Virus record (IMG/VR): IMGVR_UViG_2671180437_000003
Span: 1-11,694 of that record
Length of the DNA stretch: 11,694 nt
Reading direction: 5' to 3' (one strand)
Source of the DNA: a virus
Taxonomy: Duplodnaviria; Heunggongvirae; Uroviricota; Caudoviricetes
Part shown: positions 4,351 to 5,926 of the stretch, one piece after another
Layout: every line of letters begins with the position of its first letter
How positions within the stretch are numbered: position 1 is the first letter of the stretch
Translations under genes and position numbers: made by a program
Notes under the pieces: generated by a model
The model's input: the letters and a program-made list of their open reading frames with translations, nothing else
What the model was told of the DNA's origin: nothing
The model's database searches: none

Positions 4351-4394
4351 GTCTGATGAGGAGGGCGGGAGGTGAGAGCGTCCCGCAGTAACAG

Positions 4395-4616
4395 ATGGCA
4401 AAAATCCAGTATCTGCAGGGCACGCATGATGCCCGGGCCGGGGATATCCGTGATGTGGCACAGCCGTGTGCGGAGGTGCTGGTTCGCCTGGGGAAGGCGG
4501 AGTACATCACAGCGCGACGTCCGGCAGGTCAGAAAAAGAAACGTGATGCGGAGCATGGCGAATGTGGAACCTTTTGCGGCGAACCCGAAAAAACCAGAAA
4601 TCAGGACGTGACGTAA
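4395..4616 (+). CDS. Small hypothetical protein (73 aa) between capsid and portal genes; function unknown
   Basis: ATG at 4395. Of the three overlapping open frames here this one has the most protein-like composition (MAKIQYLQGTHDARAGDIRDV...HGECGTFCGEP). No strong SD directly upstream, and its 3' end overlaps the annotated portal start. Confidence 0.3.
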   Translation: MAKIQYLQGTHDARAGDIRDVAQPCAEVLVRLGKAEYITARRPAGQKKKRDAEHGECGTFCGEPEKTRNQDVT

Positions 4617-5926
4617 GAGAAGTGGGCTGGCGGTCCCTGTTTCAGGCGATGGCTGAGCCTTTTGCCGGTGCCTGGCAGCAGGGTGTGAAAGCCGATCCGG
4701 AAACCGTTTTGTCCTTTCACGCGGTGTTTTCTTGCATTTCGCTGATATCCCAGGATATCGCCAAAATGCGGCTGCGCCTGATGCAGACGGATACACAGGG
4801 GATCCGCCGTGAAAAACGGCAGGGGGATATTGCCCGTCTCTGTCGTCGTCCCAATGCACAGCAGAATCGTATCCAGTTTTTTGAACTGTGGCTGAACGCC
4901 AAACTGCGTCACGGCAATACGGTGGTGCTGAAAATCCGTAACTCCCGGGGGCAGATCAAAGAACTGCGTATTCTGGACTGGAGCCGGGTTGAACCTCTGG
5001 TGGCGGATGACGGCGAGGTGTTCTATCGCATCACGCCGGACCGGAACTGCGGGATCACGGAGGCGGTGACGGTGCCTGCCCGGGAAGTGATCCACGACCG
5101 GTTTAACTGTTTTTTTCATCCGCTTGTGGGGCTGCCGCCGGTGTATGCCGCCGGGCTGGCGGCCACGCAGGGGCATCATATTCAGGAAAATTCGACGTCT
5201 TTTTTCAGAAATGGCGGCAGGCCATCCGGGGTGATTGAGATCCCCGGCAGTATTACGGAAGAAAATGCGAAAAAACTGAAGAGCAACTGGGACAGCGGGT
5301 ATACCGGCGAAAATGCGGGGAAAACGGCCATTCTGAGCAACGGGGCAAAATACAACCCCACGACGTTTTCACCGGTGGATGCGCAGACGGTGGAACAACT
5401 GAAGATGACCGCTGAAATTGTCTGTTCGGTGTTCCGTGTCCCGGCCTACAAGATTGGCGTTGGCCAGCCACCTTCCAGTGACAACGTGGAGGCGCTGGAG
5501 CAGCAGTATTATTCCCAGTGCCTGCAGACGCTGATTGAGTCCATTGAACTGTTACTGGATGAGGCGCTGGAAACGGGGGAAAACGAGAGTACGGAGTTTG
5601 ACGTCACCACGCTGCTGAGAATGGACAGCGAACGGCGCATGAAAACGCTGGGTGAGTCGGTGAAAAATACGCTTCTCACGCCCAATGAGGCCCGTAAACG
5701 TGAGAACCTGCCGCCCCTGGCCGGCGGTGATGCACTGTATCTTCAGCAGCAGAACTACAGTCTGGAGGCGCTGTCCCGTCGTGATGCCCGTGAAGATCCG
5801 TTTGCGTCGTCCGGGAAAAGAGTTTCAGCCCAACTGCCTGACGGCGCATCTGACGGTAATAAGGCAATCAGTGAAACAGAGCATGGTGCGTTGAAAGCGA
5901 TGTTGAGGGGGATACTGCGAAAATGA
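4562..5926 (+). CDS. Phage portal protein (HK97-family-like); start codon uncertain (ATG 4562 or in-frame ATG 4649)
   Basis: 454 aa ORF containing segments typical of portal proteins (AVFSCISLISQDIAKMRL; FFRNGGRPSGVIEIPGS; VFRVPAYKIGVG). GGAG at 4550-4553 precedes ATG 4562; an alternative in-frame ATG at 4649 (MAEPFAG) would avoid the overlap with the 4395..4616 ORF. Confidence 0.7.
   Translation: MWNLLRRTRKNQKSGRDVREVGWRSLFQAMAEPFAGAWQQGVKADPETVLSFHAVFSCISLISQDIAKMRLRLMQTDTQGIRREKRQGDIARLCRRPNAQQNRIQFFELWLNAKLRHGNTVVLKIRNSRGQIKELRILDWSRVEPLVADDGEVFYRITPDRNCGITEAVTVPAREVIHDRFNCFFHPLVGLPPVYAAGLAATQGHHIQENSTSFFRNGGRPSGVIEIPGSITEENAKKLKSNWDSGYTGENAGKTAILSNGAKYNPTTFSPVDAQTVEQLKMTAEIVCSVFRVPAYKIGVGQPPSSDNVEALEQQYYSQCLQTLIESIELLLDEALETGENESTEFDVTTLLRMDSERRMKTLGESVKNTLLTPNEARKRENLPPLAGGDALYLQQQNYSLEALSRRDAREDPFASSGKRVSAQLPDGASDGNKAISETEHGALKAMLRGILRK

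Follow-up and report, generated by a model that had tools for sequence, protein, structure and literature searches.

The stretch of DNA analysed here, 11,694 nucleotides (nt) long and comprising positions 1 to 11,694 of the IMG/VR record IMGVR_UViG_2671180437_000003 (Caudoviricetes), is referred to below as the window; it is the head-morphogenesis module of a lambdoid Escherichia coli prophage of the Stx1/Stx2c siphovirus type, and our subject is the junction between its major capsid and portal genes. The capsid gene on the plus strand (2413..4350; stop TGA at 4348-4350) is a prohead protease-major capsid fusion carrying the Pfam domains Peptidase_S78 and Phage_capsid and belonging to phrog_617. 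It is followed on the same strand by three overlapping open reading frames (ORFs), as a sequence-only reading of the window had pointed out: a frame of 79 amino acids (aa) starting with GTG (4372..4611), a small gene of 73 aa starting with ATG (4395..4616) and the portal gene of 454 aa (4562..5926). The same reading regarded the approximately 210 bp between capsid and portal as unusual for a tightly packed operon; the length is right (211 nt from the capsid stop to the portal ATG), but the intergenic part is just 44 nt (4351-4394), the remainder being occupied by the small gene. The junction is an ordinary one and is already correctly annotated in public records, its only unusual feature being that a conserved RNA hairpin separates the small gene from its apparent ribosome-binding site.

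The module is common among related prophages. A megablast search with positions 4000-5200 returned 92 phage records at 90-99% identity, all of them Stx1a-, Stx2a- or Stx2c-converting or related siphoviruses (Sawaravirus, Pankowvirus), and among 5,426 complete E. coli genomes 1,244 contain the 300-nt capsid-portal junction, a single genome having as many as 7 copies; many Stx prophages are among the carriers. For comparison within the E. coli clade 80 close loci were fetched, and this comparison comprises 82 loci representing 39 haplotypes. Another 40 divergent loci from Enterobacteriaceae and Alphaproteobacteria were gathered by means of the portal protein (45-70% identity). Analyses of coding constraint used 17 sequences (the window, three E. 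coli haplotypes and 13 enterobacterial relatives), and the alignment of the initiation region used 22 intergenic sequences (eight E. coli variants and 14 relatives).

The substitution pattern shows that the ORF at 4395-4616 is a genuine protein-coding phage gene. It is intact in all 17 compared sequences, and over its first 41 codons the proportions of non-synonymous (pN) and synonymous (pS) differences are 0.26 and 0.69, respectively (pN/pS 0.38), while the two alternative frames over the same codons give pN/pS values of about 1.2 and are interrupted by stop codons in 12 of the 17 sequences (the 79-aa frame) and in all 17 (the remaining frame). Every enterobacterial relative examined carries an ORF of 51-58 aa at the same place, with the pattern MAKIRYLQRTHDS.PGDEK.V.DQCARVLVLLGKAEY..., and residues 1-63 of the window protein match positions 1-63 of the 63-position hidden Markov model (HMM) of phrog_829 in PHROGs v4 with an E-value of 8.3e-39. 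A Pfam search with the 73-aa and 79-aa products returned no matches, in the case of the 73-aa product none even at E <= 10. One point tempers the signal of constraint: inside the E. coli clade the core of the gene is only mildly constrained, the 39 haplotypes differing in the frame of the gene by 14 synonymous and 11 non-synonymous changes. The supposition that the 73-aa ORF encodes a small protein was therefore sound, but the gene is not unannotated; it appears as a coding sequence for a "hypothetical protein" in AP012536, LC567837 and RefSeq/PGAP (WP_001063025.1).

Two rare deletions were seen at this gene. In one of the 82 loci (L102) a 1-nt deletion at the equivalent of window position 4435 moves the small ORF into the 79-aa frame, and in another close locus (L082) a 2-nt deletion corresponding to window positions 4384-4385 affects the 3' arm of the hairpin described below. 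These deletions represent either sequencing errors or decaying prophage copies.

The 79-aa frame has a well-placed GGAGG, 7 nt before its GTG at 4372, and was considered as a gene for this reason, but we have rejected it. The GTG is GCG in 29 of the 39 haplotypes, changes in this frame inside the E. coli clade amount to 4 synonymous and 21 non-synonymous ones, and the stop codons and the pN/pS of 1.2 given above point in the same direction. The frame does match phrog_26251, because this family contains mis-called or frameshifted database entries; two database proteins (P0051 and P0032) are frame chimeras akin to the product of the L102 deletion.

The portal gene starts at the ATG at 4562, and the sequence evidence leaves no ambiguity in this respect. 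In the portal frame a stop codon occupies 4544-4546, and no start codon is available between it and ATG 4562, which is served by the Shine-Dalgarno (SD) sequence GGAG at 4550..4553 on the plus strand, 8 nt before the ATG and kept as GGAG or GGGG in relatives. The N-terminus MWNLLRRTRKNQ... (MWN...) aligns with MWNPFRRKEKALQQP... in homologues of 52-70% identity, which are collinear from the start at 4562; the Pfam domain Phage_portal (PF04860) covers residues 54-382 (E 4e-81), and both GenBank and RefSeq records use this start. The sequence-only reading had noticed a second ATG in the portal frame, at 4649..4651 on the plus strand, and had taken the start to be ambiguous and possibly mis-called. 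Both ATGs do exist; the latter encodes Met30 of the portal protein and occurs only in the haplotype of the window, being GTG in 38 of the 39 haplotypes, so that the proposed ambiguity is not borne out.

That reading had also suggested a slipped portal N-terminus at a run of six A residues in the overlap. The run is there, one base upstream of the position first given (4588..4593 on the plus strand, not 4589-4594), and is read as CGA AAA AAC in the portal frame and as GAA AAA ACC in the frame of the small ORF. An explanation in which the portal N-terminus was mis-called, or in which a -1 slip on this run fuses the small protein to the portal and yields a minor, N-terminally extended portal subunit, could appeal to the fact that a -1 shift at 4589-4592 from the small-ORF frame does reach the portal frame, and to the same length of the run in all 82 loci and 39 haplotypes. 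This invariance, however, follows from the overall identity of the sequences (91-98%) and from their coding for the portal. Read in the small-ORF frame, the site is A AAA ACC, which does not conform to the canonical heptamer X XXY YYZ, and the 87 nt downstream of it fold no better than shuffled sequence (z +0.11), with nothing structured within 30 nt and no stimulator at a distance of 5-9 nt. Moreover, the relatives have no overlap between the two genes and could not make such a fusion, and the portal is served by an SD of its own and begins at a conserved start codon. We consider this explanation highly improbable; a slip at a low level is conceivable, but it has no support.

Two further observations concern the portal gene itself. 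Positions 4631-4635 of the window exist as two allele classes, CGGTC in six haplotypes including the window and ACCAG in 33 haplotypes, which changes portal Arg-Ser to Thr-Ser together with a switch of the serine codon from TCC to AGC; these five bases have the appearance of a mosaic block that arose by recombination of diverged alleles. At its 3' end the portal gene overlaps the following ORF of 299 aa (5923-6822) by ATGA (5923-5926), and PGAP and some GenBank records label the two together as one "frameshifted" or pseudogene portal; phrog_2271 is likewise an 859-position fusion profile of both. All enterobacterial relatives checked have a separate ORF of 297-402 aa (MNERELS.I..LGEEF...) with the ATGA overlap at the portal stop, so that two genes appear to be the ancestral condition and the "frameshift" of these records is probably artefactual. 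This ORF differs in length between phages (299, 353 and 407 aa) and shows a weak match to CBM_5_12 in the window, and a scan for DNA tandem repeats in it found none.

The predicted structure of the small protein consists of a domain of about 40 residues and a basic tail rich in Lys and Arg. AlphaFold2, run on a 36-sequence alignment, assigns a predicted local distance difference test (pLDDT) score of about 90 to residues 1-40, and residues 1-43 (4395..4523 on the plus strand) are confidently predicted to form a beta-beta-alpha-beta mini-domain, with strands at residues 2-6, 18-21 and 35-37 and a helix at residues 23-32. Residues 44-46 and 50-72 have pLDDT below 50, and the tail is accordingly modelled as disordered.

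The last part of this tail has a history of its own. In ten relatives the stop codon of the small ORF falls on the portal start (TGATG or TAATG), and in three others it lies 16-19 nt ahead of that start. The window and all E. coli haplotypes have GGC GAA TGT where relatives have GGC TGA TG, and in the absence of this stop the small ORF continues for 18 codons to TAA 4614-4616. The resulting tail, residues 56-73 with the sequence ECGTFCGEPEKTRNQDVT and the stop codon (4560..4616 on the plus strand), overlaps the portal gene by 55 nt and is confined to the E. coli clade. The ancestral small gene thus ended on the portal start in the form TGATG, and two substitutions (TGA to GAA) abolished this stop in the E. 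coli clade.

This history bears on a His-x2-Cys-x3-Cys motif with an extra Cys that the sequence-only reading had emphasised. The residues are present, in the form H54-G-E-C57-G-T-F-C61-G-E-P with C25 elsewhere in the 73-aa product, and one might imagine a virion or assembly protein that binds zinc or another metal through H54, C57 and C61, perhaps together with C25. C57 is indeed kept in all intact E. coli haplotypes, the single exception being the frameshifted locus. Nevertheless, C57 and C61 lie in the tail, which no homologue from outside E. coli possesses, relatives have N, T or A at the position of H54, and C61 is Tyr in 31 of the 82 loci. The seven variable sites of the overlap comprise five non-synonymous and two synonymous changes in the small-ORF frame, against three and four, respectively, in the portal frame, and these few substitutions are consistent with the portal frame, and not the tail, being under constraint. 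Because the two Cys residues belong to a clade-only tail that is predicted to be disordered, and because C61 is so often replaced, we interpret the Cys/His string as having come about, free of constraint, when translation ran on into the portal gene, and not as a conserved metal site; a metal-binding role has, in our estimation, hardly any chance of being correct.

We now turn to the initiation region of the small gene. The only sequence upstream of it with strong complementarity to the anti-SD is UGAGGAGGG (-12.5 kcal/mol), which ends 29 nt before the ATG; the SD-like GAGGAGG found here, at 4358..4364 on the plus strand (core GGAGG at 4360-4364), is situated 30 nt upstream of ATG 4395, abuts the 5' side of a GC-rich hairpin and has the same location in all 22 aligned sequences. 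A proximal SD within 15 nt of the ATG was sought in the 22 sequences, and none of the 22 offered anything better than -3.2 kcal/mol; the best anti-SD site lies 23-29 nt upstream in all of them except one, where the distance is 16 nt. Most other genes in the window have an SD 1-10 nt from the start. The hairpin (4365..4386 on the plus strand) is formed by pairing of GCGGGA at 4365-4370 with TCCCGC at 4381-4386 and by inner pairs between 4372-4373 and 4378-4379, leaving 8 nt to the ATG, and it is found in both the minimum-free-energy structure of RNAfold and the centroid structure.

All sequences keep the hairpin, whereas its flanks and its distance from the capsid stop (0-12 nt) vary. The core found by RNAalifold comprises 6 bp, and in a nine-pair model 91% of the cells of the alignment can pair; controls with slid 3' partners pair at 50-62%. 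Double changes (GC to AU or similar) occur at three pairs, the observed covariation score was reached by none of 500 shuffles, and in the commonest class of E. coli haplotypes the pair G4365-C4386 is replaced by A-T. The distance from the SD to the stem is 0-2 nt and the spacer from the stem to the ATG is 6-9 nt, so that folding of the hairpin would leave an effective distance between SD and AUG of about 8 nt in the window and 6-11 nt in relatives. The small gene would accordingly be translated from a split initiation region, in which the hairpin would bring GGAGG and AUG 4395 to within about 8 nt of each other. Such an arrangement is known from phage T4, where the spacing is reduced from 22 to 5 nt in gene 38 and from 27 to 11 nt in gene 25 (PMC3014915; see also PMC7297116 for the split initiation architecture of these genes). 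The likeness consists in an SD that is linearly too distant from the AUG (30 nt, against 22 and 27 nt in T4) with a stable, conserved hairpin between the two. The phage, the gene and the sequence are unrelated to those of T4, however, and the predicted hairpin in the window follows a capsid stop and looks like a former terminator.

This last aspect leads to a different explanation. Late operons of phages contain intrinsic terminators or stabiliser hairpins after the capsid gene, such as T-phi after gene 10 in T7, and a GC-rich hairpin directly after the major capsid gene is found here from alphaproteobacterial to enterobacterial relatives. The hairpin may therefore be merely a post-capsid attenuator or a stabiliser of the mRNA 3' end that raises capsid over portal expression, the GGAGG being incidental or serving to retain ribosomes that have finished the capsid gene at its stop codon, and the small gene being translated through termination-reinitiation or SD-independent initiation. 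In the alphaproteobacterial relatives (L016-L043) a strong GC hairpin, often with a T-rich tail, closely follows the capsid gene, about 20-60 nt ahead of the homologue of the small ORF, and an ordinary SD stands 3' of it; several enterobacterial relatives have TTTT after the stem, and the GGAG is separated from the capsid stop by only 0-12 nt. The copy in the window differs from such terminators in that it sits between an SD and its start codon and in that its tail, AGUAACAG, has no U-tract; we tried it as an intrinsic terminator and rejected it on this ground, and a terminator scan of 4000-5000 made no call. A U-tract 3' of the stem is absent from every E. coli haplotype. Furthermore, it speaks against simple attenuation that the GGAG is held within 0-2 nt of the stem, and the spacer at 6-9 nt, amid variable flanks, and that a proximal SD is lacking in all 22 sequences. 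An Rfam search of 4200-4800 at E <= 1 gave nothing.

Several facts nevertheless weigh against a split ribosome-binding site. Among the variants of the hairpin, that of the window is the weakest (G-G mismatch; fold z-score only -1.95); the covariation comes from few independent events among related sequences; and the position of the SD 3' of the hairpin in alphaproteobacterial relatives means that the primary role of the hairpin may be transcriptional or one in mRNA stability. On the basis of this sequence analysis, we judge the hairpin-bridged SD to stand at about an even chance, and a role confined to attenuation or stabilisation to be possible but rather unlikely. The hairpin would have descended from a post-capsid terminator or stabiliser hairpin as seen in relatives, and it probably began in that capacity.

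The small protein belongs, as a divergent member, to a very large phage family (phrog_829; DUF7210-like, Pfam PF23843) of small proteins whose genes directly follow that of the major capsid protein. A search with a profile built from the window protein and its relatives recovered proteins with precomputed PF23843 annotation, PF23843 is matched by 19 of 36 and by 27 of 34 aligned family members (best E 1e-7), and phrog_2616 matches both the enterobacterial and the alphaproteobacterial branches. An exhaustive HMM search assigned 2,255 cluster representatives to the family. Most alphaproteobacterial loci have a longer protein (68-132 aa) in the same position, and in about half of these longer proteins the N-terminal domain can be aligned with the enterobacterial one (...Y.TRRL.AGD.F.A..RDAR.L.AIGKA...); the remaining ones match chiefly through a common C-terminal motif. 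When an enterobacterial-only HMM was used, the syntenic alphaproteobacterial ORFs were the best non-self matches, although weak ones (E 0.01-0.6). It must be said against this membership that the window protein is under every Pfam threshold and does not reach the gathering cut-off of PF23843 (27 bits); the alphaproteobacterial positional homologues, with 18-20 bits, are likewise under this cut-off.

The typical architecture of the family is an N-terminal domain, a linker rich in Pro and Ala, and a C-terminal motif L..LRAEY..GK.P..GW....L..KI, which resembles, as judged by eye, a helix-extended-helix (HeH) motif. The window protein has the capsid-portal position in common with the family, and three distant members that we inspected all show the order TerL-(protease)-capsid-X-portal. 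It differs in that the long linker and the HeH-like motif at the C-terminus have been lost from the enterobacterial branch and that the E. coli clade has gained the 18-residue read-through tail. Literature searches on DUF7210, YqbF and WP_001063025 found nothing relevant.

As for function, the sequence-only reading had spoken of a small virion or assembly protein, and a role in head assembly or packaging is indeed probable. Of the candidates for such a role, a DNA-packaging chaperone of phage lambda, gpFI (PF14000; PDB 2LSM), deserves comparison. In lambda the capsid gene E is followed by FI, the same relative position as that of the small gene, which comes directly after the major capsid gene in relatives as well as in the window (capsid stop 4350, small gene from 4395). 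The lambda gpFI sequence has an HeH-like N-terminus, and its C-terminal part, ...LPGTAFRVSAGVAAEMTERGLA, resembles the motif of the family. The order of the domains is reversed between the two, the folded domain being N-terminal in the small protein and C-terminal in gpFI, and the window protein has just the short basic tail. gpFI bridges the capsid and the terminase-DNA complex (PMC13595911). By analogy, the folded domain of the small protein would bind the capsid or the portal vertex, and the basic tail, or the HeH-like motif in longer homologues, would contact DNA or the terminase. We propose this gpFI-like role in head assembly or DNA packaging only tentatively, because it is drawn from the modelled fold, the position and the permuted architecture and the sequence homology is not significant.

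In detail, the N-terminal domain gave fold matches to the N-domain of ribosomal protein bL9 and the B-domain of GINS, and a tentative one to the C-domain of lambda gpFI. The best of them, and this speaks against a kinship with gpFI, are the bL9 N-domain and the GINS B-domain; the former was found with Foldseek at a template-modelling score of 0.65-0.83 normalised to the target and with 25-32% identity, and a fold of 40 residues can arise by convergence. Profile comparison with gpFI (PF14000) by hhalign was not significant either (probability 0.1-0.3%, E 0.18-0.52), nor did it become so when repeated with 120 close gpFI homologues, all of which are at least 86% identical and thus add no useful diversity to the profile, and a search for PF14000 in the family found no match. 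A profile search of PDB sequences gave a response regulator as its sole match (E 0.012), which we dismissed as due to chance.

The small protein could thus be real without being gpFI-like, and could act instead as a nucleic-acid binder resembling the N-domain of bL9, with the fold and the basic tail holding DNA or RNA, as a head-completion factor of the portal or connector, or as a scaffold-like assembly factor. The leading structural matches, of which the bL9 N-domain binds rRNA, and the abundance of Lys and Arg in the tail would suit the first of these, and the gene adjoins the portal as well as the capsid gene at every locus seen. No link to bL9 was found at the sequence level, however, and BLASTP of the N-domain against an approximate N-terminal sequence of E. 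coli bL9 produced no alignment. The matches to bL9 and GINS carry no specific information on a role in phages, and the combination of a folded domain with an HeH-like motif, as well as the position after the capsid gene, also fits gpFI and YqbF of Bacillus subtilis. We regard a function of this other kind as conceivable but doubtful. A wider generalisation can be put forward as speculation that is more likely wrong than right: the DUF7210-like proteins, with at least 2,255 clusters in HK97-type head modules, may be domain-permuted functional equivalents of gpFI and YqbF and act generally as chaperones of DNA packaging or head assembly, the enterobacterial branch being expressed by way of a split SD recycled from a post-capsid terminator.

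Some other features of the module and its relatives are recorded here. The capsid gene is preceded by those for TerS (128-691) and TerL (688-2349), and the 299-aa ORF behind the portal gene is followed by one for a gp6-like connector (6819-7145). The GTG start listed for TerS has the SD-like GGAGGAGG ending merely 1 nt upstream, which indicates that the true start is probably another codon. In one haplotype (L120) the capsid stop TGA, at the equivalent of window position 4348, is changed to CGA, which would add two codons before the next TGA. A 3-kb contig binned as a Chitinophaga metagenome-assembled genome (L010; NZ_DATCVJ010000643.1) carries an enterobacterial-type small ORF and a portal with 60% identity to that of the window, and is probably mis-binned or a contaminant.

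Considered as a whole, the junction is probably best explained as an ordinary packed head-module junction with a real small gene, a portal starting at 4562, a split initiation region and a gpFI-like helper; the last two of these we infer, and the function of the helper is the weakest step of the explanation. Three points of annotation can be regarded as settled: the small ORF is to be kept as a genuine gene, the start of the portal is at 4562, and neither the Cys/His string nor the 79-aa ORF deserves a functional meaning. Two leads emerge from the analysis. One is an apparent natural split ribosome-binding site that has been conserved phylogenetically outside the T4 group. The other is a testable hypothesis for a very widespread family of small phage proteins, namely that its members may serve as packaging helpers in the manner of gpFI.

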